A stretch of DNA of 17,030 bases from Bacteroidia bacterium (GTDB lineage Bacteria > Bacteroidota > Bacteroidia > Bacteroidales > VadinHA17): NCBI GenBank assembly GCA_026391215.1, contig JAPLDX010000114.1:1-17030 (forward strand), read 5' to 3'. Below are positions 938 to 15,893 of this stretch, piece after piece. Each line of letters starts with the position of its first letter. Position 1 is the first letter of the stretch. Position numbers and translations under genes: made by a program. The notes under the pieces are model-generated. The model was not told where the DNA came from and searched no databases. It was given only the letters and a program-made list of their open reading frames with translations.

Positions 938-1024
938 CCTGAAAACCTCAGGACACACACACTCTGCTAACACAGAATAAACTGGCATTTAAATTATGCT
1001 TTTAAAACTCAATACAACTTGTTT

Positions 1025-3463
1025 ATGTTTAAAAATTATTTCAAAACCGCATTCAGGAGTTTGATCCGAAACAGGAATTACACTATTATCAACATCGTCG
1101 GCCTGGCTGTTGGTATTGCCGTTTGTATGATGATCTTTATCATAATACAATTTCAAACAAGCTTCGACAATTTTCACTCAAAGAAAGATCGCATCTATCG
1201 TGTGTTAACCGAATATCATCATGCAGAGGCAGCAAATACTGGAAAAGATGTTCCTTTTCCTTTGCCGGAAGGATTGAAAACAACTTTTGCCCAAATAGAA
1301 CAAGTAGCTCCGGTTTGGGCAAGCCACAATGATAAATTATTGATACCGGACAATAACGGAGCAGCGACTAAATCATTTAAAGAAGACAAAGGCGTATTTT
1401 TTACAGAGCTTTCATTCTTTAAAATGTTTGATTACCCGCTGCTTGCAGGTTCATATGAATCATTGAAAGATCCGAACAATGTATTGCTTACAAAAGAGAT
1501 TGCAGAAAAATACTTTGGTGACTGGAAAACAGCGCTGGGCAAAACCATTAACCTGGAAGCAGGCGGCTCTCTCTTCAGCCATTCCACTGATGTTTTGAAA
1601 GTTTCAGGCATTCTTGCGACCATACCTGCCAATACAGACTTTCAACTAAAACTTGTGGTGGCTTTTGGAACAGGCATTACCGAAGATATGGCAAAAAACA
1701 CCGATTGGAAGGATAGAACGAATTCTGATTACGGTTGCTATGTTTTGTTGCCGCCGAATATTTCTGTTGACAATTTTAATCAACAATTAAGAGCCTACTC
1801 ACGAAAGATGGAATCTCCTGATAATAAGGATAGTTATATTATACAACCATTAAGTGCGGTTCATTACGATACACAAACGGGTGATTACAGCAACAAAACA
1901 ATCAGCCGCCAGCTGCTTAATGTTTTGTGGCTGATTGCAGCATTCATCCTGTTAATTGCCTGCGTCAACTTTATCAACCTTTCCACTGCACAAGCTGTTA
2001 ATCGTGCAAAGGAAGTCAGCGTAAGAAAAGTTTTTGGAAGTAATAAATCTCAATTGCAAATCCAGTTCATTATCGAGACATTTTTGATAGTTATAAGTGC
2101 TGTAATACTTGCAAGTGTTATTACAATTATTGCATTGCCTTATATAAATCAACTTTTAGAACTTTCGCTGTCATTTAACAAACTCAACAACTCTGCAACT
2201 ATTTTATTTCTTATAACTATAACAATTGTTGTAACTGCCCTCGCCTGTTTTTATCCTTCTGTAGTTTTATCACGTTTAAGTCCTGTTAATGCTTTAAAGA
2301 GTAAACTAACAGCCAATACAGCAAAGGGAATTTCATTAAGAAGGGGCTTGGTTGTGTTTCAATTCATCATTGCACAGGTACTTATCATCGGAACTCTCAT
2401 AATTGTAAAGCAAATGAATTATTTTATGGATCAACCGCTGGGCTTCGATAAAGATGCAATTATAAATGTTCCTTTCCGTGTTGATACTGTTTGGTTCAGA
2501 AAGGAGGATTATTTAAAGCAACAGTTATTGTCAGTAAACGGTGTGCAGGCAGTAACCTTCAGTTCCAACACCCCGGTTGAAGATGCTAATGATATCTGGA
2601 GCTCATTCAAATTTGACAATGCAATAAAAGAAGAAGATTTTAAAGCTATTACCAAATTCGCCGACGAAGAATATGTGCCGGCTTACAAATTACAGCTGAT
2701 AGCCGGAAGAAATTTGCAACCTTCTGGTCCGACAAGAGAATTTTTAGTGAATGAGTCGCTCATGAAAAGTTTGGGAATTAAAAACCCTGATGAAATATTG
2801 AATAAAGAAATAGCTATGTGGGGTGATCGGATAAAATGTCCTGTTGTAGGTGTATTGAAAGATTTTAATGACAGATCCTTTCGCCATTATCCTGCACCAT
2901 TGCTTATTACCACAAACATCACCATGTACAGCCAGGCAGGAATAAAACTTGAATCGAAAAACATTTCTTCTACACTGCAATCAATCAAAACAATATGGGA
3001 GCAAACACTTCCCAACTTTGTTTATGAATACAAGTTTCTGGATGATAAAATTGCAGGTTTTTACAAACAGGAAAGCCAGTTGGCGCAGTTGTATAAAATT
3101 TTTGCAACCATCGCCATATTCCTTAGCTGTCTTGGGCTATACGGTTTAGCCTTATTCATGGCAGTGCAGAGAACCAAAGAAATTGGTATTCGTAAAGTAC
3201 TAGGTGCCAGCGCATACAATATTGTTTATTTGTTTTCAAAAGAATTTATTATGCTCATTGCAATTGCCTTTGCAATTGCTACACCCATTGCCTGGTATTA
3301 CATGTACAACTGGCTGCAGAATTATGTTTATCACATTAGCATCAATTGGTGGTTATTTGTTGCAGGCGGGTTTGTTGCTATACTTATTGCACTAGCAACG
3401 ATAAGTTTCGAGGCAATTAAAGCTGCGTTTGCAAACCCGGTGAACAGCCTTCGCTCTCAATGA
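1025..3463 (+). CDS. ABC transporter permease, MacB/FtsX family (duplicated MacB_PCD + FtsX architecture)
   Basis: Typical start MFKNYFKTAFRSL, plus IACVNFINLSTAQAVNRAKEVSVRKVFGS and QRTKEIGIRKVLGAS FtsX motifs and a C-terminal ANPVNSLRS. ATG 1025 preferred to TTG 1019. Confidence 0.95.
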   Translation: MFKNYFKTAFRSLIRNRNYTIINIVGLAVGIAVCMMIFIIIQFQTSFDNFHSKKDRIYRVLTEYHHAEAANTGKDVPFPLPEGLKTTFAQIEQVAPVWASHNDKLLIPDNNGAATKSFKEDKGVFFTELSFFKMFDYPLLAGSYESLKDPNNVLLTKEIAEKYFGDWKTALGKTINLEAGGSLFSHSTDVLKVSGILATIPANTDFQLKLVVAFGTGITEDMAKNTDWKDRTNSDYGCYVLLPPNISVDNFNQQLRAYSRKMESPDNKDSYIIQPLSAVHYDTQTGDYSNKTISRQLLNVLWLIAAFILLIACVNFINLSTAQAVNRAKEVSVRKVFGSNKSQLQIQFIIETFLIVISAVILASVITIIALPYINQLLELSLSFNKLNNSATILFLITITIVVTALACFYPSVVLSRLSPVNALKSKLTANTAKGISLRRGLVVFQFIIAQVLIIGTLIIVKQMNYFMDQPLGFDKDAIINVPFRVDTVWFRKEDYLKQQLLSVNGVQAVTFSSNTPVEDANDIWSSFKFDNAIKEEDFKAITKFADEEYVPAYKLQLIAGRNLQPSGPTREFLVNESLMKSLGIKNPDEILNKEIAMWGDRIKCPVVGVLKDFNDRSFRHYPAPLLITTNITMYSQAGIKLESKNISSTLQSIKTIWEQTLPNFVYEYKFLDDKIAGFYKQESQLAQLYKIFATIAIFLSCLGLYGLALFMAVQRTKEIGIRKVLGASAYNIVYLFSKEFIMLIAIAFAIATPIAWYYMYNWLQNYVYHISINWWLFVAGGFVAILIALATISFEAIKAAFANPVNSLRSQ

Positions 3464-3566
3464 GCTAAGGCTTAGATGCACCGAGGTATGAATAAAAGAT
3501 CATTTTCAACAGTAAATAGTTCTGAATAATTAAATTTATAATCAAATTTGTTTGTTTAAAGATACT

Positions 3567-4679
3567 ATGAGGAAAGGGGCAAAGGAAAAGGCCATCAGGA
3601 TTATACTCCACATCCTGGTTTGGGCTGTTATTATGGGCTTACCGATTTACTCCGCGAGAAGGTTCCAGATGGGAAGTAATTTCCTCGTAGTCTATTATAC
3701 CATCACGGCTATAAGTGCCTTAATTTTTTACACAAATTACCTGTTCCTTGTACCGGTGCTTTTCTTTCAGAAAAAAAGGTACAGGTATTATATTGCCGTA
3801 CTGGCTCTTCTTTTCTTTTTTTATTTCATATCTGACTTTGCCAACGAGCAGATATCCAGTTATATATCTAAAAATGACAACTCAGAACAGTTTATCAGGC
3901 CACCCGTTGATAAACAGGGCCGGATACAACCACCACCTCTTAGGTTGAGACCCGGGATCATTATAGCTGTGCCTAATGCCCATTTCATTGGGTATATGTC
4001 ATCTTCACTTTTTATGGTATTTCTTTCACTGGGTCTTAGTTTGCTTGAACGTCAGTCAAAAATTGAAAAAATGCAGGAAGAGATGGAAAAGGCAAAGCTT
4101 AATGCAGAGCTTGCCCTTCTGAAAAGCCAGATCAGTCCTCATTTTTTCTTCAATACCCTTAATAACATCTATTCGCTCAGTACAATCAACCCGGAGGATT
4201 CACGTACTGCAATATTGAAGCTGTCGAAAATGATGCGATACCTGCTTTACGATTCGGAGGAAGGTGATACGAAACTCAGCAATGAGATAGAACTGATGAC
4301 AAATTATATCGAACTTATGAAACTCAGGCTTGATGATAATTATGACCTGAGAGTTAAGTTCCCCGATGAATACGAGGATTTCAGGATACCCCCGCTTCTC
4401 TTCATTCCGTTCATTGAAAATGCTTTCAAGCACGGTGTAAGCTTCCGTGAGGATTCATTCATCGACATATTTATGGCTATCTCTGATAGCATCATAATAT
4501 TCAGATCCTTTAACAGCTTATCCGGATCTGCAGCCGAAACAGGTCTTGAATCATCCGGCATAGGTTTGAATAATGTCAGGAAACGACTCGATCTGCTCTT
4601 TCCCGGCAAACATGACCTGCAACTAAATAAAACCGAAAGTACCTTTGAAGTATTGCTAAAAATCGATTTGACCTTATGA
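3567..4679 (+). CDS. Membrane sensor histidine kinase, LytS/YehU-type
   Basis: About four N-terminal hydrophobic helices, H-box LKSQISPHFFFNTLNNIY, N-box PFIENAFKHG and G-box SGIGLNNVRKRL. ATG 3567 preferred to TTG 3552. Confidence 0.93.
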   Translation: MRKGAKEKAIRIILHILVWAVIMGLPIYSARRFQMGSNFLVVYYTITAISALIFYTNYLFLVPVLFFQKKRYRYYIAVLALLFFFYFISDFANEQISSYISKNDNSEQFIRPPVDKQGRIQPPPLRLRPGIIIAVPNAHFIGYMSSSLFMVFLSLGLSLLERQSKIEKMQEEMEKAKLNAELALLKSQISPHFFFNTLNNIYSLSTINPEDSRTAILKLSKMMRYLLYDSEEGDTKLSNEIELMTNYIELMKLRLDDNYDLRVKFPDEYEDFRIPPLLFIPFIENAFKHGVSFREDSFIDIFMAISDSIIIFRSFNSLSGSAAETGLESSGIGLNNVRKRLDLLFPGKHDLQLNKTESTFEVLLKIDLTL

Positions 4680-5389
4680 TGACAATTGTAGCAGTTGATG
4701 ACGAACCATTGGCTCTTCAGCTGATTACCAGGTACATTGAAGAAACTCCGGAGCTGTCGCTTCTCAGGATGTTTAGAAATCCTCTTGAGGCTGCCGTTTT
4801 CCTGAAGGAGAACAGTGTTGATATTGTAATGCTCGATATCCAGATGCCGGAGCTGAATGGAATCGAATTCGCCAGGCAAATGCCCCCGGGACCAAAAGTG
4901 ATCTTCACTACGGCATATAAGAAATACGCGATCGAAGGTTTCAAACTTGAAGTAGTGGATTACCTTGTCAAACCCTTCAGTTACCAGGATTTTCTCAAGG
5001 CAATTCGACGGGCTGAAAAGATTATCAGTCTTGAAAAGAAATCCTACGAGAATATCGAGTCAAACAACGAATTCCTGTACCTGAAGTCTAATTACAAGAT
5101 CAAAAGATTAAAATTCAATGACATTCAGTACATCGAGGGATTTAACGACTCTGTAAGGATCTATGCCGTTTCTTCCCCTGAACCTATTCAGTCCCAGACC
5201 ACACTCAAGGTACTCGAAGCCAAACTGCCTGCCGGAAGATTCATGAGAATTCACCGCTCGTTCATAGTGAATCTCCAGATGGTAGATACCATTGACAGGG
5301 GCAGAATTGTATTCGGCAAGGTATATATTCCCGTTGGCGATCAGTATAAGGAGAAATTTGAAGACTATCTCAGGAAGAACTTTTTATAG
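4676..5389 (+). CDS. LytTR-family response regulator
   Basis: Receiver motifs VDDEPLA, LDIQMP, FTTAY and DYLVKP, and LytTR motif FMRIHRSFIVN. ATGA overlap with the kinase stop. Confidence 0.95.
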   Translation: MMTIVAVDDEPLALQLITRYIEETPELSLLRMFRNPLEAAVFLKENSVDIVMLDIQMPELNGIEFARQMPPGPKVIFTTAYKKYAIEGFKLEVVDYLVKPFSYQDFLKAIRRAEKIISLEKKSYENIESNNEFLYLKSNYKIKRLKFNDIQYIEGFNDSVRIYAVSSPEPIQSQTTLKVLEAKLPAGRFMRIHRSFIVNLQMVDTIDRGRIVFGKVYIPVGDQYKEKFEDYLRKNFL

Positions 5390-6592: not shown

Positions 6593-7675
6593 GTGAAAAA
6601 GAAAAAGAATTTCCTGAATCCTGTATGCTTAGTTTTAGTATTGACAGTCGTTATTACGGCTGAAGCACAGAATTCAAAAAATCCCAAGCTTATTCTCATA
6701 ACGGAACAAGGAAGCTTTGCAGTTGGCGGAACCATAAATGCCAATCCCGGCACTTTCGATCCGTACAATCCGACTCCCGCCGGGCAAACCTTCAGGGGTG
6801 ATCATGCTTATATTTTTTACCAGATACCGGCGAAGGCACGCAAATATCCTCTGGTAATGTGGCATGGTATCGGACAGTTTTCAAAAACATGGGAGACAAC
6901 TCCTGACGGCAGGGAAGGCTTTCAGAATATATTTCTCCGCCGTCGTTTTGGTGTCTACCTGATTGATCAGCCAAGAAGAGGTAATGCAGGTCGAAGCACT
7001 ACAGAAGCAACCATAAATCCAATCCCTGACGAACAACAATGGTTCGGAACATTTCGTGTAGGTGTATGGCCAGACTATTTCGAAGGTGTGCAGTTCTCAC
7101 GGGACACTGAGGCGTTAAACCAGTATTTCCGCCAGATGACACCCAACGTCGGACCTATTGATATTAGTGTCAATGTCAAGGCAATATCGGCGCTTTTCGA
7201 TAAAATTGGTCCGGCAATTCTGGTTTCTCATTCGCATTCCGGAGGAATGGGATGGCTGACAGCAATTAAGAGTCAGAATGTTAAAGCCATAGTATCTTAT
7301 GAACCGGGTAGCGGCTTTGTATTCCCGGAAGGAGAAGTGCCTCCTCCCATACCAATGTCAGGCGGAACTCTAGCGGCTGCAGCAGTGCCTATGGCTGATT
7401 TTATGAAACTCACCAAAATTCCAATAGTGATTTACTATGGTGATTTCATACCGGAGATGCAAATCGCGAATCCCGGCCAGGATGGATGGCGGGCACGTCT
7501 TGAAATGGCAAGATTATGGAGGGATGCCGTAAATAAACACGGAGGGGACGTTACTGTGATTCACTTGCCTGAAATCGGCATCAAAGGCAACACACACTTT
7601 CCGTTTTCAGATTTAAACAATATAGAGATAGCCGACTTAATGTCGGAATGGTTAAAGGAAAAGGAATTGGATTAA
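6593..7675 (+). CDS. Secreted alpha/beta-fold hydrolase
   Basis: Signal peptide ending AEA|Q, WHGIGQ, WETTPDGREG, IDQPRRG, nucleophile elbow VSHSHSGG and catalytic-His region GNTHFPF. GTG start. Confidence 0.88.
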   Translation: MKKKKNFLNPVCLVLVLTVVITAEAQNSKNPKLILITEQGSFAVGGTINANPGTFDPYNPTPAGQTFRGDHAYIFYQIPAKARKYPLVMWHGIGQFSKTWETTPDGREGFQNIFLRRRFGVYLIDQPRRGNAGRSTTEATINPIPDEQQWFGTFRVGVWPDYFEGVQFSRDTEALNQYFRQMTPNVGPIDISVNVKAISALFDKIGPAILVSHSHSGGMGWLTAIKSQNVKAIVSYEPGSGFVFPEGEVPPPIPMSGGTLAAAAVPMADFMKLTKIPIVIYYGDFIPEMQIANPGQDGWRARLEMARLWRDAVNKHGGDVTVIHLPEIGIKGNTHFPFSDLNNIEIADLMSEWLKEKELD

Positions 7676-7733
7676 GAATGAGTCAATAACAATAAAGTCA
7701 TTGTAAATAATTAATATTTAAATAATTATCAAT

Positions 7734-9362
7734 ATGAAAGCAATATGTCTTGGATTGTTCATAGTAATCTTAAGTTCGACTTTGTCCTTAGCACAGGATT
7801 CTCCTGCCCCTGCAGCAGCGCCAACTGTTCGTACCGCTTCAGGGACCTTGCGAGGTGTAACAAATGGAGATGTCGACAGTTTCCTGGGAATTCCCTATGC
7901 TGCTGCTCCGGTTGGTGAGTTTCGCTGGCGTCCACCCCAACCTGTTGTCGCATGGCAGGGAGAGCGTGATGCCAGCAAGTTTGGCGAGACTTGCGCAGCG
8001 GCAGGATGGGGTGCTGCTCAAGGATCAATTCAGGAGGGTTCATCGGAAGATTGCCTGTTTTTAAATATATGGCGGCCTGCAGGAGCCGTACAGGGGGCAA
8101 AGCTGCCGGTTATGGTTTGGATACACGGAGGCGCCTTTGTGGGAGGCAGCGGTAACACTTCCGGAGATCAGTTTGCCAAACAGGGTGTAATCCTGATTAG
8201 CATCAATTACCGTCTTGGGCGCCTTGGTCATTTTGCATTCCCCGCGCTGAGCAGGGAGCATCCGGAAGAACCCAAAGGCAGTTACGCATTCATGGACCAG
8301 ATAGCAGCCCTCAGGTGGGTACAGCAAAATATTGCAGCATTCGGGGGTGATCCTGAAAATGTTACTATTTTCGGTTTTTCTGCGGGTGGCGTTTCGATAC
8401 ATTCACTCCTTACCATACCAGCCGCACAAGGTCTTTTCCAAAAGGCGATCAGTCATTCCGGAGGTGGGCGGGATGGCGTTTTGACCGGCAGGCCGATCAG
8501 TAAAGAAAATGCATCTCCATACTACCCTGTTTCAGCGGAAACTATCGGAATAAACTTTGCCCGTAAACATGGGATCGAGGGTACAGATGCGGCCGCACTG
8601 GCCAGACTACGTGCCCTGAAAGTTGAAGAGATTGTGGACGGGGGACAGGAAAATGATGGCCAGGGAGGTCCGCGTATCTATTCAGGCCCGATCCTCGACG
8701 GTAAATTTGTTGTAGAGACTGCTGAGAGTGCATACAAGGCAGGCAGGCAGGCACGCGTTCCGCTCATGATCGGTAATAATAGTGCAGAAATAGGAGGACC
8801 CTTTGTTAATGCCAGCAGCTCAAAGGAAGAACTGTTTTCACTGTTCGGGGAACTTGAAGATGAGGCAAAAGCTGCCTATGATCCTGATGGTAAAAAAGAA
8901 TTCGCTGAGGTAGTCACAAGGTTTAACACGGACAAGGTATGGGCAGAGCCTGCACGGTTCACCGCGAGTTCTTTTGCCGCCGTTGGTGATCCAGCCTACA
9001 TTTTTCTCTTCTCTTACGTACCAGCTGCCATGAAGGAGCGGATGCGGTTCGGCCCCGGACACGGAACCGATATTTCTTATGTGTTCGATAATCTAAGAGC
9101 ACCGGATGGAGCAACCGTAGCACCTGAGGATAAAGAGGTCGCCAGGATGATGAACGCCTATTGGGTGAACTTCGCCAGGACCGGCAATCCTAATGGTAAA
9201 GGTCTGCCGAAATGGCCTGTTTACAGTCCCAGGAAAAACAAAATACTCGATATACAACCTGATGGTGTACCAGTCGGTAAGCCTGATCCAAGGAAAGCGA
9301 GACTGGACGTGATTGAAAAGGCAGTGAACATGGGGGATAAGCTACAACCAAATGGTATTTAA
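7734..9362 (+). CDS. Secreted type-B carboxylesterase (COesterase family)
   Basis: [49 protein letters not shown] and His motif [10 protein letters not shown]. Signal peptide SLA|Q. Confidence 0.95.
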
Positions 9363-9442
9363 CCGGCAAGGTGAAGCATTGAAGGACCGTCTATCACAGA
9401 TCAGTGACTTGCATTTTTCTAAAAGCGCAAAATATTATAGAT

Positions 9443-11849: not shown

Positions 11850-12185
11850 TTATTTTGTAACCTCATTAAAATGCACCTGAGCCCACTCTATCATCTTCTC
11901 TATTATTGGCATCAGACTCAGACCAAGTTCTGTTAGCGAATACTCCACACGTGGCGGTATTTCAGCATAAGCTTTTCTTTTCAACAGATGTTCCTGTTTA
12001 AGGTGTTTCAAAGAGCTTGTAAGCATCTTTTGCGAAATGTCTGGTATTGCTTTCCTTATTTCCGTATAACGCATTTTGCCTTGCGCCTGAAGGCTGCATA
12101 ATATCAGCAAAGACCATTTGTCAGCAAACCGGCCTAATACATTTCTTATAGGACATGTCGGGAATCGTAAGTCAAGTTCTTTCAT
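11850..12185 (-). CDS. HxlR (MarR/DUF24) family winged-helix regulator
   Basis: TCPIRNVLGRFADKWSLLIL, ISQKMLTSSLKHL and YAEIPPRVEYSLTELG are HxlR signatures. The N-terminal CP motif is retained. Confidence 0.95.
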   Translation of the reverse strand: MKELDLRFPTCPIRNVLGRFADKWSLLILCSLQAQGKMRYTEIRKAIPDISQKMLTSSLKHLKQEHLLKRKAYAEIPPRVEYSLTELGLSLMPIIEKMIEWAQVHFNEVTK

Positions 12186-12204
12186 TCTTATGATTTTGTT
12201 GGTG

Positions 12205-12212
12205 CAAATATA
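12205..12212 (-). promoter_or_regulatory. -7 box for the HxlR gene
   Basis: Minus strand TATATTTG (TAnnTTTG), 19 nt upstream of the ATG. Confidence 0.6.
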
Positions 12213-12350
12213 TATCTTATACTCAAAAAGAGAGTAATAATACTAATAAGTCATTACTCTATTAAAGGATCTTTAAATTATTTGTTAAATATTGATATCT
12301 AAAATGTTGATAATCAATATTTCTAACCATATAGGTGCGTAAGATACCTC

Positions 12351-12382
12351 TTTGCAGGATTCCTCATGCTATCATAGCTTTG
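12351..12382 (+). promoter_or_regulatory. Consensus Bacteroidota sigma-A promoter for the precursor/radical SAM operon
   Basis: TTTG (12351-12354), 20 nt spacer, TAGCTTTG (12375-12382). This matches TTTG-N19-21-TAnnTTTG and ends 26 nt before ATG 12409. Confidence 0.75.
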
Positions 12383-12408
12383 CTGATTATTAATTTAAAA
12401 ATATACGA

Positions 12409-12720
12409 ATGAACAATTTGAACAAGTTAAATGGATGGGCAGGAGATGGTGGATATATTTCACGTACCTCTGCACAAAGCTACATGGTTTCAGGATCATT
12501 TGACATGACTTCTTCCGGTTGTGGTTCCTCATGTGGTTCAAAGGATGGCGATGCCAAGCCTACCCCTTCCTCTTGCGGAACCGGTGACAGCGAACCAAAA
12601 CCTTCATCATGTGGCGCTGGCGACAGTAAACCTGCACCTTCTGCCTGTGGTTCAGGTGAAGGTGACGACAAACCTAAAACATCAGCCTGCGGTTCCTCAT
12701 GCGGAAGTGGGGGAAAGTAA
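12409..12720 (+). CDS. acgA: Cys-Gly repeat RiPP precursor peptide (ACGX-repeat type)
   Basis: 103 aa: leader-like MNNLNKLNGW..., then seven S[SAG]CG units. It lies 19 nt upstream of a radical SAM/SPASM gene and behind a consensus promoter. The family name is recalled, not searched. Confidence 0.85.
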   Translation: MNNLNKLNGWAGDGGYISRTSAQSYMVSGSFDMTSSGCGSSCGSKDGDAKPTPSSCGTGDSEPKPSSCGAGDSKPAPSACGSGEGDDKPKTSACGSSCGSGGK

Positions 12721-12739
12721 AGATTTTAGTCATAAAATT

Positions 12740-13768
12740 ATGGAATACTTTGCTTTTCAATGGCACATAACCGACAGTTGTGACCAGCGCTGCCGGCATT
12801 GCTATATCTTCTCAGAAAACAATCATAACAATTTGAAAGAGATGTCCTGGACTGGGATAGAATCAGTTTTTGAAAATTGTCAGGATATGTGCAAGAAGGC
12901 AAATCGTATACCTTATTTCTATATTACAGGAGGAGATCCGATACTACACAGTCGTTTCTGGGATCTGATGGAATTGTTCAAGTCTCACAATATTGATTTC
13001 ACCATACTTGGAAATCCTTTCCATCTTAATGATAAAGTATGTAAGAAGTTGAAAGATTATGGATGCGAAAGGTATCAGCTATCGATTGACGGATTAAGGG
13101 AAACTCATGACGCAATGAGAAAAAAGGGTTCTTTCGATTCAACAATTGAAAAGATAAAATGCCTGCATAAAGCAGGTATCAGAAGTGCGATCATGACTAC
13201 AGTTTCAGGAGTAAATGCTGAAGAATTACCCGGGATTATCGATCTTGTTGTTGAAAATAAAGTTAATGTCTTTGCTTTTGCAAGGTACGCACCGACTAGT
13301 TTTGAAAAGAGTACACATCTGACACCTGATCAATACAGAAGCTTACTGGAAGTCTGCTGGCAGAAGTTTGAGCAATATAAAGACAGCGAAACAAGTTTTA
13401 ATCTCAAGGATCATTTGTGGACTCTATTTTTACACGAAAAGGGTCTTTTCAAAGTGCCAGAAAAACTTAATGACGATGTGATCTACGAAGGCTGCAACTG
13501 CTCTAATTGTCATCTCACAATACTACCTCAGGGGGAGGTTTATGCATGCAGACGGTTTGAAAGCAATATCGGTAATGCGTTTACTGAAAATCTATACGAT
13601 ATTTTCACCGGTGAAAAAATGGATGTTTACAGAGACTACAACAAATTTGAAAAATGTTCCTCATGTGAATTAAAAAGATTTTGCCGTGGCTGTCCTGCCG
13701 TAACATACGGGTATACAGGTAATTTTTATGGAGTTGATCCCCAGTGCTGGAAACAAATAGCAGGCTGA
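12740..13768 (+). CDS. acgM: Radical SAM/SPASM peptide maturase, ACGX-system type (342 aa)
   Basis: MEYFAFQWHITDSCDQRCRHCY (CxxxCxxC), ITGGDP, QLSIDG, and SPASM region GCNCSNC...GEVYAC...CSSCELKRFCRGC...DPQCW. The real start is ATG 12740; the 12521 extension overlaps the precursor. Confidence 0.9.
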   Translation: MEYFAFQWHITDSCDQRCRHCYIFSENNHNNLKEMSWTGIESVFENCQDMCKKANRIPYFYITGGDPILHSRFWDLMELFKSHNIDFTILGNPFHLNDKVCKKLKDYGCERYQLSIDGLRETHDAMRKKGSFDSTIEKIKCLHKAGIRSAIMTTVSGVNAEELPGIIDLVVENKVNVFAFARYAPTSFEKSTHLTPDQYRSLLEVCWQKFEQYKDSETSFNLKDHLWTLFLHEKGLFKVPEKLNDDVIYEGCNCSNCHLTILPQGEVYACRRFESNIGNAFTENLYDIFTGEKMDVYRDYNKFEKCSSCELKRFCRGCPAVTYGYTGNFYGVDPQCWKQIAG

Positions 13769-13782
13769 AAAGCGAATTTGTA

Positions 13783-14751
13783 ATGAAAGCAGTCGTATTA
13801 TATAAAACCTGTGAGCCTGAACAACTTACTGTAAGTGAGGTTTCAATACCGGAGGTGAAACCAGGCTGGGTACTGATCAAAGTAAAAGCTTTTGGACTCA
13901 ACCGCTCAGAGCTGATGATGCGGGAATATGAAGGAAATGCGCCATATATCACTTTGCCTCGAATCCTTGGAATTGAATGTGCGGGAGAAATCGCCGATGG
14001 TTCGGATAGTGGATTCAGGAAAGGACAGCGGGTGGTTGCCCTCATGGGCGGAATGGGCCGGTCATTCGATGGCAGTTATGCCGAATACACAATGGTTCCT
14101 TCAAAAAATGTTTTTTCCGTAGGTAACACCTATGACTGGGAAGAATTGGGAGCCATCCCTGAAACGTATTTTACTGCATGGGGATCTGTCATGGATTGTT
14201 TGCAACTCAGCCCGCATGATACTCTCCTGGTTCGCGGGGGTACCAGTGCAACTGGACTGGCAGCTGTACAATTGGCCAAAAGCTGCGGAGCAACGGTACT
14301 GGCATCCACACGAAATGAAAATAAACATGAAATCTTGCTGCGACAGGGAGCCGATCATGTGGTGATCGATGATGGAACGCTTAAGGCACAAGTATTGAGT
14401 ATCTTTCCCTCCGGTTTAAACAAGATCCTTGAACTTATCGGTGCTGTTACTCTTCTTGAGTCAGCCAGCCTGCTAAGGCATCATGGGATTGTTTGTGTCA
14501 CAGGCATATTGGGTAAAAAGGGAACACTCGACAATTTCTATCCTGTTAAGGACCTGCCTTCCGGAGTATATCTGACAGGCTTTTCGAGTAATTCCCCTTC
14601 ACAGGCTGCAATAGATGATATTTTTGAACATATACATAAACATAACCTTCACCCTGCTATATCAAGAGTATTTTCTCTGGATGAGATTGGTCAGGCACAC
14701 ACATTAATGGAAAACAACACAGCTAACGGGAAAGTGGTAGTGAAAATATAA
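13783..14751 (+). CDS. MDR-superfamily NAD(P)H oxidoreductase, quinone-oxidoreductase-like (zinc-independent)
   Basis: MKAVVL start, VKAFGLNRSE (Asn in place of the catalytic-zinc Cys), LGIECAG, GSYAEY, VRGGTSATG, and C-terminal AHTLMENNTANGKVVV. ATG 13783 is 14 nt after the radical SAM stop. Confidence 0.9.
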   Translation: MKAVVLYKTCEPEQLTVSEVSIPEVKPGWVLIKVKAFGLNRSELMMREYEGNAPYITLPRILGIECAGEIADGSDSGFRKGQRVVALMGGMGRSFDGSYAEYTMVPSKNVFSVGNTYDWEELGAIPETYFTAWGSVMDCLQLSPHDTLLVRGGTSATGLAAVQLAKSCGATVLASTRNENKHEILLRQGADHVVIDDGTLKAQVLSIFPSGLNKILELIGAVTLLESASLLRHHGIVCVTGILGKKGTLDNFYPVKDLPSGVYLTGFSSNSPSQAAIDDIFEHIHKHNLHPAISRVFSLDEIGQAHTLMENNTANGKVVVKI

Positions 14752-14804: not shown

Positions 14805-15893
14805 ATGAAAACAATTAAAAACTTATTCATTATAATGCTGATAGTATTTGTAATGAATCCGGTTGTTGAAGGACAGATTGCTGATTTATTTGTCAATTCA
14901 AACTCCGGGAATGACCATAGCATTGGATCGAAAGAACAGCCATTGAAAACATTGAACGAAGCAGCTGAAAGGGTCAATCATGCCAATGGTAAAGGAGCTG
15001 TTACGATTTATCTTTCTGAAGGTATATATGGTCTGGATGCCACAGTAACCTTTCATCCGGTGAACTGGCATTTTTCTAAAGATGAACGATTGACTATCCG
15101 TGCAACAGTTTTACCGGATGATACCGGGTGGAACCCTGGAATGATGCCGGTAATTGTATCAACAATGCCTCTTGACTTTAAACCAAATGGAAGAGTGGAT
15201 CCCCTTGGCGGGGCATCGTACGGAATCCAGATTGAAACAAGCTTTGTTACCATTCAGGGTTTACGGGTCTTAGGTACCCCGGTTCATGAAAGGCCACAGG
15301 AAGGAATGGTAAGACGAAATTATCCCATTGTGAGAGAAGGTAGAAATCTCGATGATCTCAGAATTACTCAATGCCTGTTTGTCGGGGATAAGGTTGCAAT
15401 TCCTAACCATCTGGCAATTCTGGCCAGCGGACAGGGAATAGTAGTTGATCACTGTGTTTTTTATCACTGTAAAGATGCAATTGTATTCTGGTTTTCTGAT
15501 CGACCTGCCGAGCATTGTGAAGTACATCACAATCTATTTATTGGTAATTATGGCGCAAATGTTTGGTCATGGTCAGCCGCCGAAGATTTAAAATTTTACA
15601 ATAATGTTGTCGGGAGCACCAATGTTTTTTGGATCTTAAACAGAGATGAAAAAGTATCGTTTTCTCTTTCAAATTCTCTGATTGCTGGCTATAACGAACT
15701 TGTTAACAAAGGTGGAGGTCCTGGAGGTTTTGGTGAAAAAGCTGACCCGGCTAAATTGAAATTTGGCCAGGATGTTATTGTTAAAAAGGAAGGGACCGTT
15801 CAAATTGAGGAAGATCCTGTAAAAAGAAACTATTTACATCTGATGCCGGGCACAATGGGTGCTGACCTGGGAGCCGGGTTATTCACGAAGTAA
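14805..15893 (+). CDS. Secreted right-handed parallel beta-helix (pectin-lyase-like fold) protein
   Basis: Signal peptide VEG|Q, N-terminal LFVNSNSGNDHSIGSKEQPLKTLNEA...IYLSEGIY motif, and coil repeats VTIQGLRV, ITQCLF, VDHCVF, VHHNLF, FYNNVV. Confidence 0.75.
   Translation: MKTIKNLFIIMLIVFVMNPVVEGQIADLFVNSNSGNDHSIGSKEQPLKTLNEAAERVNHANGKGAVTIYLSEGIYGLDATVTFHPVNWHFSKDERLTIRATVLPDDTGWNPGMMPVIVSTMPLDFKPNGRVDPLGGASYGIQIETSFVTIQGLRVLGTPVHERPQEGMVRRNYPIVREGRNLDDLRITQCLFVGDKVAIPNHLAILASGQGIVVDHCVFYHCKDAIVFWFSDRPAEHCEVHHNLFIGNYGANVWSWSAAEDLKFYNNVVGSTNVFWILNRDEKVSFSLSNSLIAGYNELVNKGGGPGGFGEKADPAKLKFGQDVIVKKEGTVQIEEDPVKRNYLHLMPGTMGADLGAGLFTK

Follow-up and report, generated by a model that had tools for sequence, protein, structure and literature searches.

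A conserved ACGX-type radical SAM peptide cassette with an HxlR-family regulator and an interchangeable NAD(P)H reductase, putatively acting in thiol-reactive stress of anaerobes

The DNA analysed here, referred to as the window, is a stretch of 17,030 nt of contig JAPLDX010000114.1 from Bacteroidia bacterium GCA_026391215.1, which at positions 11850-14751 carries an ACGX-type precursor peptide gene and its radical SAM/SPASM maturase gene, flanked by genes for a divergent HxlR-type regulator and an NAD(P)H oxidoreductase of the medium-chain dehydrogenase/reductase (MDR) superfamily. An earlier reading of this DNA, made from its letters without database searches (the sequence-only reading), had described a tight operon divergent from hxlR, and both the listing of open reading frames (ORFs) and inspection of the sequence confirmed the four genes (Table 1), with a spacing of 223 nt between hxlR and the precursor gene and gaps of just 19 nt (12721-12739) between precursor and maturase and 14 nt (13769-13782) between maturase and MDR; no plus-strand terminator-like site was found in the scanned region, which included the whole operon. 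The ACGX family is named in NCBIfam and public annotations carry that name, and the locus adds one more example, notable for its diverged and stretched precursor, to this catalogued but uncharacterised kind. A literature search, with the supplementary tables of radical SAM genome-mining papers lying outside it, returned no relevant paper on ACGX, TIGR04340 or TIGR04341, or on HxlR together with a SPASM enzyme. Judged by the comparisons presented below, the locus appears to be a self-contained, horizontally mobile four-gene cassette comprised of hxlR, an ACGX-type precursor, a radical SAM/SPASM maturase and an NAD(P)H reductase.

Table 1. Coordinates of the cassette genes, putative regulatory elements and the gene 3' of the cassette in the window.
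Feature	Positions	Strand	Description
hxlR	11850-12185	minus	111-aa HxlR/DUF24-type winged-helix regulator; PF01638
Candidate -7 box of the hxlR promoter	12205-12212	minus	TATATTTG; read from the sequence, putative function
Palindrome	12231-12260	n/a	AGAGTAAT-N14-ATTACTCT; adjoins the hxlR promoter; candidate autoregulatory operator; conserved in the 22-region alignment
Inverted repeat	12287-12322	n/a	10-nt arms, AAATATTGAT...ATCAATATTT; right arm TGATAATCAATA alone conserved in relatives
Conserved block	12321-12348	n/a	TTCTAACC-N5-GGTGCGTAAGATACC; stops 2 nt before -33; candidate HxlR site for the operon
Presumed Bacteroidetes-type promoter of the operon	12351-12382	plus	-33 TTTG (12351-12354), 20-nt spacer, -7 TAGCTTTG (12375-12382)
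Precursor peptide	12409-12720	plus	103 aa; leader and Cys-Gly core
Radical SAM/SPASM maturase	12740-13768	plus	342 aa; TIGR04340
MDR-superfamily NAD(P)H oxidoreductase	13783-14751	plus	322 aa; zinc-less quinone-oxidoreductase type
Secreted beta-helix protein	14805-15893	plus	53 nt after MDR; Pfam Beta_helix weak, E 8e-5

The assignment of maturase and precursor to the ACGX families, for which the sequence-only reading had proposed a search with hidden Markov models, was upheld for the maturase, which matched TIGR04340 ('radical SAM/SPASM domain protein, ACGX system') over model positions 1-341 with 592.2 bits against a cut-off of 400, and not for the precursor, which scored 17.3 bits with TIGR04341, under the curated cut-off of 28. 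Pfam placed Radical_SAM (PF04055, E 2.9e-25) at residues 10-170 and SPASM (PF13186, E 1.8e-8) at residues 252-310 of the maturase and showed nothing N-terminal to Radical_SAM, and thus no N-terminal peptide-recognition domain; the translation contains the motifs CDQRCRHC (CxxxCxxC from residue 14) and CSSCELKRFCRGC. The next-best NCBIfam model was that of SbtM (TIGR04082), with 179.6 bits against a cut-off of 350 and a match confined to positions 198-504 of its 516, followed at a distance by the model of the mycofactocin maturase, to which similarity is weak (74.6 bits), and by the PapB model NF047865 (68.7 bits, cut-off 340). By model score the maturase is closer to SbtM than to PapB, and it lies under the cut-off of both. 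In all, 2813 protein clusters were found at E<=1e-40, and a homologue of 72% identity is named 'putative mycofactocin radical SAM maturase' by one source, which is an automatic label only. Another family of the phylum harbours a distant maturase relative (L006, G294 C30) with a sub-cut-off 320 bits on TIGR04340, followed by genes for a different, 83-aa Cys-Gly-rich peptide and a glycosyltransferase-like protein; inspection of its 4 kb by eye, without a search, showed nothing resembling an HxlR or reductase ORF, and L006 is probably a separate peptide system. In a metagenome-assembled genome of the Bacillota (L244, 3465-4521) the maturase is split over three overlapping ORFs, owing to frameshifts or assembly errors.

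Despite its sub-cut-off TIGR04341 score, the window peptide shares leader motif and gene position with its relatives, which themselves score from 19.7 to 74.2 bits with this model (L007 19.7, L028 27.4, L023 36.8, canonical forms 32-74); no model of the Pfam copy searched matched even canonical ACGX peptides. The leader carries the motifs L-N-x-L-N-G-W and S-A-Q-S-Y, and the core contains seven cysteines (Cys38, 42, 56, 68, 80, 94 and 98), each with Gly after it and Ser, Ala or Gly before it, of which Cys42, 56, 68 and 80 lie in C-x3-D/E (4/7), Cys38 and 94 in C-x3-C (2/7) and Cys98 in neither. No hydrophobic signal sequence and no obvious cleavage motif is visible in the translation, nor does the 103-codon ORF contain an in-frame stop that could encode selenocysteine. 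Precursors from 81 loci were compared, 74 of them usable and the other 7 set aside as the wrong ORF had been picked, none was found or a stretch was masked. The leader motif [R/H/T]-[S/T]-A-Q was present in 72 of the 74, with L-N-x-L-N-G-W added in the window's clade. Their 360 Cys-Gly sites, numbering from 2 to 8 per precursor, are mostly preceded by Ala (282) or Ser (51), and the residue at +4 is Asp in 144, Cys in 140 and Glu in 50; in Clostridia, Negativicutes, Treponema and methanogens there are often single A-C-G-x-x-D or A-C-G-E-E units. The common denominator of ACGX peptides is Ala-Cys-Gly followed by an acidic residue within two to four positions, and the modification may be a thioether from Cys to Asp/Glu, as with PapB, or else a thiooxazole, as with SbtM. 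The outlier locus L031 (1-7900) encodes a peptide with SSGCGV repeats and is without HxlR, MDR or nitroreductase; four ABC-transporter-like genes lie upstream of it and a flavodoxin-like gene downstream.

The fourth gene encodes a reductase with the two-domain MDR architecture (ADH_N PF08240 and ADH_zinc_N PF00107), the best NCBIfam match being the PIG3-type quinone oxidoreductase model TIGR02824 (183.5 bits, under the cut-off of 296.8) and the nearest solved chains being the quinone oxidoreductases 4dup, 1yb5, 2j8z and 2oby (E 1e-31 to 1e-21). At the stretch where zinc alcohol dehydrogenases have their Cys/His ligands it reads GLNRSE.

The possibility, raised in the sequence-only reading as one that would speak against it, that the linkage of HxlR and MDR is unique to this genome can be set aside following three scans for related loci. 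The first scan took the first 80 such loci, with at least 1000 nt upstream in 73 and at least 1100 nt downstream in 71; a divergent HxlR was present in 61 of the 73, and the gene directly after the maturase encoded an MDR in 43 of the 71 and a nitroreductase in 27, with both in none and neither in one. The nitroreductase which replaces the MDR (PF00881, E 3.5e-19) resembles ordinary small NAD(P)H nitroreductases. Seeding the second scan with a distant member brought in 36 further loci alongside 38 duplicates of the first set, giving 116 distinct Bacteroidales loci, of which 85 had at least 1500 nt on each side. Counting genes anywhere within 3 kb, HxlR was found at 73 of these 85 and a reductase at 84 (MDR 53, nitroreductase only 31), L031 being the one without; at three apparent exceptions from the second scan the nitroreductase proved to be the first gene of the operon, and at several loci HxlR lies downstream on the same strand. 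The third scan, seeded with a Clostridium homologue and screened with models of the Bacteroidales proteins, excluded partial maturase matches and records titled as Bacteroidota taxa or 'Staphylococcus' (probably mis-binned), and yielded 29 non-Bacteroidota loci with a whole maturase. Nineteen of them, from 13 Bacillota, 5 methanogenic archaea and 1 spirochaete, had at least 1200 nt on each side, and here HxlR was present at 17 and a reductase at 18 (MDR 16, nitroreductase only 2, neither of these reductases at L192). The carriers are Bacteroidales of gut, rumen and sediment, Clostridia, a spirochaete and methanogens, and all nameable ones come from anaerobe groups, with Labilibaculum manganireducens, Clostridium akagii DSM 12554 and Konateibacter massiliensis among those that are cultivable; the methanogen cassettes point to transfer between domains.

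The reductase label (MDR, nitroreductase or none) requires 5 changes on a 77-row maximum-likelihood tree of the maturase, from which L050, L054, L061 and L064 were left out owing to stops or short matches, and well-supported branches leave no way around at least 3 of these changes. Identity to the window MDR is 51-83% among ACGX-linked MDRs, those from Bacillota and archaea score 420-517 bits on a model built from Bacteroidales MDRs, and in many relatives the maturase stop and MDR start overlap (offset 0). MDR homologues at E<=1e-40 were detected in 8 of 300 other genomes of the class, none of them exceeding 50% identity. The comparisons suggest that the MDR is dedicated to the cassette and not a housekeeping gene beside which the cassette landed, and that the reductase is an integral, if interchangeable, part of it. 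The loci from Methanobacteriaceae (Methanobrevibacter and Methanosphaera; L195, L201, L204, L216 and L218) also hold the maturase-MDR cassette, and HxlR is divergent in each of the four with upstream flank, L204 being limited to 239 nt on that side; their maturases are 64-72% identical to the Clostridium homologue, and the peptides read for three of the loci, among L195, L201, L216 and L218, contain A-C-G-E-E, A-C-G-S-E and S-A-C-G-G-S-C-G-A-G-D repeats.

The regulator contains an HxlR-type winged helix domain (PF01638, E 4e-31, 107 bits in Pfam); among solved chains it is closest to PG_0823, B. subtilis HxlR and YybR/HypR. The N-terminal cysteine to which the sequence-only reading had drawn attention is Cys11, invariant in 59 of 59 ACGX-linked divergent HxlR homologues within C-P-[V/I/F]-R-N-V (C-P-I-R-N-V in the window) and located, at the start of helix 1, at the position of Cys11 of B. 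subtilis HxlR and Cys14 of HypR. It is the sole conserved cysteine: Cys30, the only other one of the window protein, occurs in just 11 of the 59, and no second conserved cysteine for an intersubunit disulfide of the two-Cys type represented by HypR was found among them. An N-terminal cysteine at the start of helix 1 is conserved across DUF24 regulators and used for sensing; YodB and CatR are repressors of the azoreductase AzoR1, the nitroreductase YodC and a dioxygenase, HypR is an activator of the nitroreductase HypO, and the quinone oxidoreductase QorA is under repression by QorR (PMC3351151). Of the targets described in that source, nitroreductase and quinone oxidoreductase are both enzyme classes that are present in ACGX cassettes.

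For transcription of the operon, the sequence-only reading had invoked a consensus promoter. A sigma-70 scan returned 10 sites against 10.6 expected, i.e. chance level, with a best match of 9/12, and the promoter is instead represented by TTTG-N20-TAGCTTTG, which is of the Bacteroidetes type by the consensus of the Bacteroides promoter literature. Among 59 related loci with a divergent HxlR, 51 have the pattern TTG-N17-23-TAnnTTTG 5' of the precursor. An alignment of 22 intergenic regions, all from the window's clade and with consensus blocks called at >=80%, showed conservation of CAAAnATA near the hxlR start (TAnnTTTG on the minus strand). Palindromic sites were found beside both promoters. 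On the hxlR side, AGTAAY-N14-RTTAC (<=1 mismatch) was detected in 16 of 59 HxlR-linked loci and in 0 of 13 others; elsewhere in its own genome this palindrome has one exact match, inside a large repeat-protein ORF, which equals the reversed-pattern control. On the promoter side, CTAACC-N5-GGT was detected in 22 of 59 HxlR-linked loci, all of the window's clade, and in 0 of 13 others, and the block is unique in its own genome. In distant clades this block is replaced by the palindrome GGTTACT-N12-TGTAACC, its start being 27 nt ahead of the -33 TTG in every case in which the two motifs were both seen, and the looser GTTAC-N11-15-GTAAC abutting -33 occurs in 20 of 59 HxlR-linked loci as against 0 of 13 without a divergent HxlR. 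These conserved palindromes abutting the promoter, found only where HxlR is present, are candidate HxlR operators. No wider regulon was found in the window's own genome with the patterns of the hxlR-side palindrome and the promoter-side block. At the loci without a divergent HxlR (L029-L034, L072 and L074) a protein of about 255 aa, weakly ThuA-like (E 7e-5), is often encoded directly upstream on the same strand, such a gene being seen in 7 HxlR-less loci among the first 80, and no Bacteroidetes-type promoter motif was seen before the precursor in these loci.

In agreement with the sequence-only reading, which had noted no protease, exporter or signal peptide, the window cassette contains no protease or exporter gene, and neither was seen among the annotated clusters that occur in at least 5 of 81 loci (some small clusters being unannotated); an immunity gene, a metal transporter and a metal chaperone were likewise not recurrent across the neighbourhoods. 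That the peptide stays intracellular, as had been proposed, is consistent with the missing signal peptide and recurrent exporter or protease, the argument being drawn entirely from such absences. The proposed wiring as a stress module fits the HxlR and reductase linkage where electrophiles or redox stress are concerned; its metal part has no specific support, because this type of HxlR is not a known metal sensor. Electrophile stress under anoxia is favoured over oxidant stress because all nameable carriers come from anaerobe groups and the maturase is an iron-sulfur enzyme.

We suggest, with moderate confidence, that an HxlR-gated intracellular peptide, modified at its A-C-G-x-x-D/E repeats, works with the reductase against thiol-reactive electrophiles or oxidants, and that the ACGX peptide probably serves an intracellular stress response and does not leave the cell as an antibiotic. 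In this scheme a dimer of HxlR would bind the conserved palindromic sites beside both divergent promoters, and modification of its Cys11 by an electrophile or oxidant that reacts with thiols (a quinone, an aldehyde or a disulfide-stress agent, for example) would turn on the Bacteroidetes-type promoter and with it the genes for precursor, maturase and reductase. The switch could as plausibly be activation, known for HxlR and HypR, as de-repression, because the nearest solved relatives include two activators and because a conserved site lies just upstream of -33. The oxygen-sensitive maturase would recognise the conserved leader and modify each cysteine of the repeats, the product would remain cytoplasmic, as the absence of signal peptide, protease and exporter suggests, and the dedicated reductase, a quinone oxidoreductase-type MDR here and a nitroreductase elsewhere, would either reduce the same electrophiles or act on the peptide by finishing or recycling it. 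The cassette as a whole would thereby protect strict anaerobes from thiol-reactive stress.

Several points weigh against this proposal. HxlR was not found within 3 kb at 12 of the 85 Bacteroidales loci, and 17 of the 59 HxlR-linked loci have neither promoter-side site motif by the criteria used here; moreover, the site counts follow clades and are hence not independent. The conservation of Cys11 is no proof of sensing in the present case, because an N-terminal cysteine is general across the DUF24 family as described (PMC3351151). With a maturase that is oxygen-labile, oxidant stress proper is a less likely trigger, and if all cysteines were converted to thioethers the peptide would be left with no free thiols for quenching electrophiles. 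Unlinked exporters or proteases may exist, and a dedicated, translationally coupled reductase clade fits peptide tailoring at least as well as detoxification.

Peptide tailoring is indeed the main rival, metal binding, a cofactor role and incidental linkage being less supported. It would make the locus a conventional pathway for a ribosomally synthesised and post-translationally modified peptide (RiPP), in which the reductase acts on an oxidised or unsaturated intermediate of the maturase, a signalling or antagonistic product is processed and exported by unlinked genes, and HxlR times production. We consider this fairly unlikely, while recognising that a reductase in the operon at 84/85 and 18/19 loci, often overlapping the maturase stop, and an MDR clade that travels with the cassette across phyla and was not seen above 50% identity in the 300 other genomes of the class are what it would predict. 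There is also precedent for unrelated reductase classes performing one RiPP step, LanJA using zinc and NADPH, LanJB flavin and LanJC F420H2 (PMC11519912). On the other hand, neither thioether nor thiooxazole chemistry requires a reductase, the nearest relatives of both reductases act as small-molecule quinone or nitro reductases and not on peptides, and neither a recurrent protease, exporter or immunity gene nor a signal peptide or obvious cleavage motif of the precursor accompanies the system. The MDR, moreover, presumably lacks zinc ligands of the LanJA type. A prediction of the complex of MDR and precursor (alignments of 37 and 21 rows) scored 0.00 and weighs neither way.

An intracellular metal-binding peptide, in which thiooxazoles of the copper-binding captophorin/bufferin class or free C-x3-C pairs chelate thiophilic metals, is improbable in our view. 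Its appeal stems from SbtM, to which the maturase is closer by model score than to any other characterised relative and which forms a thiooxazole out of Cys in a short peptide (PMC11002830), and from the thiooxazole peptides made by MNIO enzymes, which are described as copper metallophores with Gly after the modified Cys, as after every ACGX core cysteine, and with a heterocycle that is readily alkylated (10.1101/2025.11.18.689057, PMC12538549); 140 of the 360 Cys-Gly sites lie in C-x3-C. The SbtM score, however, is far under the cut-off of 350, the HxlR/DUF24 sensors described in the sources cited respond to electrophiles or oxidants and not to metals, no metal transporter or chaperone recurs nearby, single A-C-G-x-x-D units lacking any C-x3-C are found in many lineages, and it is not obvious what a quinone or nitro reductase would contribute to the handling of metals. 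A redox cofactor or electron carrier derived from the peptide, akin to mycofactocin or pyrroloquinoline quinone and used or recharged by the MDR or nitroreductase, is very improbable: the reductase is an obligatory partner although its family is interchangeable, the system appears intracellular and the maturase has its weak similarity to the mycofactocin maturase model, but there is no peptidase to free a small cofactor, the peptide core has no aromatic residues, the reductases look like common quinone or nitro reductases with NAD(P)H or FMN sites already in place, and a repeat number varying between 2 and 8 Cys-Gly would be unusual for a cofactor precursor. Least probable of all is an incidental association in which an ordinary HxlR-reductase stress pair acquired a functionally unrelated peptide/maturase pair, for, common as HxlR-type regulators beside reductases are in characterised systems (PMC3351151), the four genes remain together through reductase swaps and transfer between phyla and domains, peptide and maturase lie between regulator and reductase behind the regulated promoter, and neither a pattern-limited search, which returned 17 loci, nor the 300-genome class sample turned up an MDR of the ACGX-linked clade that is paired with HxlR and lacks the maturase. 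A distant MDR homologue (L102, 30% identity), at a locus without ACGX, was the only one there with a divergent HxlR, and it counts in favour of an incidental association.

Beyond the cassette, the beta-helix gene that follows the MDR recurs at 13 of 81 loci, all close relatives, and a 64% identical homologue was observed beside a 45% MDR homologue at L110, where no ACGX maturase was seen; membership of this gene in the cassette is uncertain. Neighbours recurring in a few loci were a cupin, a tautomerase, an ABM monooxygenase, DUF5131 and a pair of Macro and SIR2-like genes. The latter pair, absent from the window, lies 3' of the cassette in 7-8 of 81 loci (L007, L009, L010, L021, L072 and L074; SIR2-like only in L035 and L043). 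Between precursor and maturase, a cupin-domain gene is located in L014 (1317-1754) and L075 (5618-5995), and a gene for a 176-aa secreted protein in L040. In the window itself, a MacB/FtsX-type permease gene (1019-3463) some 9 kb upstream is followed by genes for a histidine kinase and a LytTR response regulator, and this region (1019-5389), about 7-11 kb upstream of the cassette, is not syntenic in relatives. G+C content reaches 0.48-0.51 at 7500-9400, as compared to about 0.38-0.41 around it, a segment which covers a carboxylesterase gene (7734-9362).

Orphan pairs of a peptide and a radical SAM enzyme occur widely in anaerobes with no genes for export beside them; ACGX is one that regularly pairs with a thiol-type sensor and an NAD(P)H reductase. 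Should the proposed role as an intracellular protectant be correct, ribosomal peptide modification would extend from antibiotics and cofactors to stress physiology, and a transferable defence module would be added for gut and rumen anaerobes, methanogens included. Going further, the ACGX peptide could be a gene-encoded, rechargeable cytoplasmic protectant, a stand-in for a low-molecular-weight thiol or redox buffer, made on demand through a thiol-sensing regulator, recycled by its own NAD(P)H reductase and exchanged between Bacteria and methanogenic Archaea; this we regard as a speculative and unlikely extension.

Among known systems, the DUF24/HxlR regulons of YodB, HypR and QorR share with the ACGX cassette the regulator family, the helix-1 cysteine and the target enzyme classes; they include neither a peptide nor a radical SAM enzyme, unlike the cassette, and HypR and YodB use two cysteines as compared to the one conserved cysteine of ACGX-linked HxlR. 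B. subtilis HxlR, the activator of hxlAB, senses formaldehyde via a methylene bridge that joins Cys11 to Lys13 (PMC7835342). It is among the best solved matches (E ~1e-23), shares Cys11 and is divergent from its target as in the window, whereas its Lys13 is Ile in the window HxlR; in the 59-sequence alignment the columns conserved at 90% include 11, 12 and 14-16 and not 13, which is Val, Ile or Phe in the rows displayed. Sensing of formaldehyde by the B. subtilis mechanism is not expected, because Lys13 is required for it. Reductases of the LanJA type pair with a lanthipeptide synthetase, none of which is present in the window. The freyrasin core has repeated Cys-X3-Asp/Glu motifs and a single SPASM radical SAM enzyme, PapB (PMC9413430), and the same spacing applies to 4 of the 7 window cysteines and 194 of the 360 Cys-Gly sites of the family; the differences are the sub-cut-off PapB score of the maturase, the approximately 39% of ACGX cysteines that lie in C-x3-C, and the ACGX context of regulator and reductase. 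SbtM is the best-scoring characterised family after ACGX itself and likewise modifies Cys of a short peptide, although the maturase scores below its cut-off and the precursor has no selenocysteine-compatible in-frame stop. SCIFF-type pairs of anaerobes also combine a Cys-rich peptide with a SPASM maturase and are not known to have a linked protease or exporter. They belong to different families, CteB (chain 5wgg) being a weak PDB match, and ACGX has its own regulator and reductase. The closest counterpart is the ACGX system as catalogued (TIGR04340/TIGR04341), a database definition that is not known to include regulator and reductase. Its tandem ACGSACGAG units are represented in the window by repeats stretched to about 12-14 residues (SSCG-x-GD-x-x-PKP), and the window joins it through a full-length maturase above cut-off and a precursor directly upstream with repeats of a small residue before Cys-Gly and the family leader motif.

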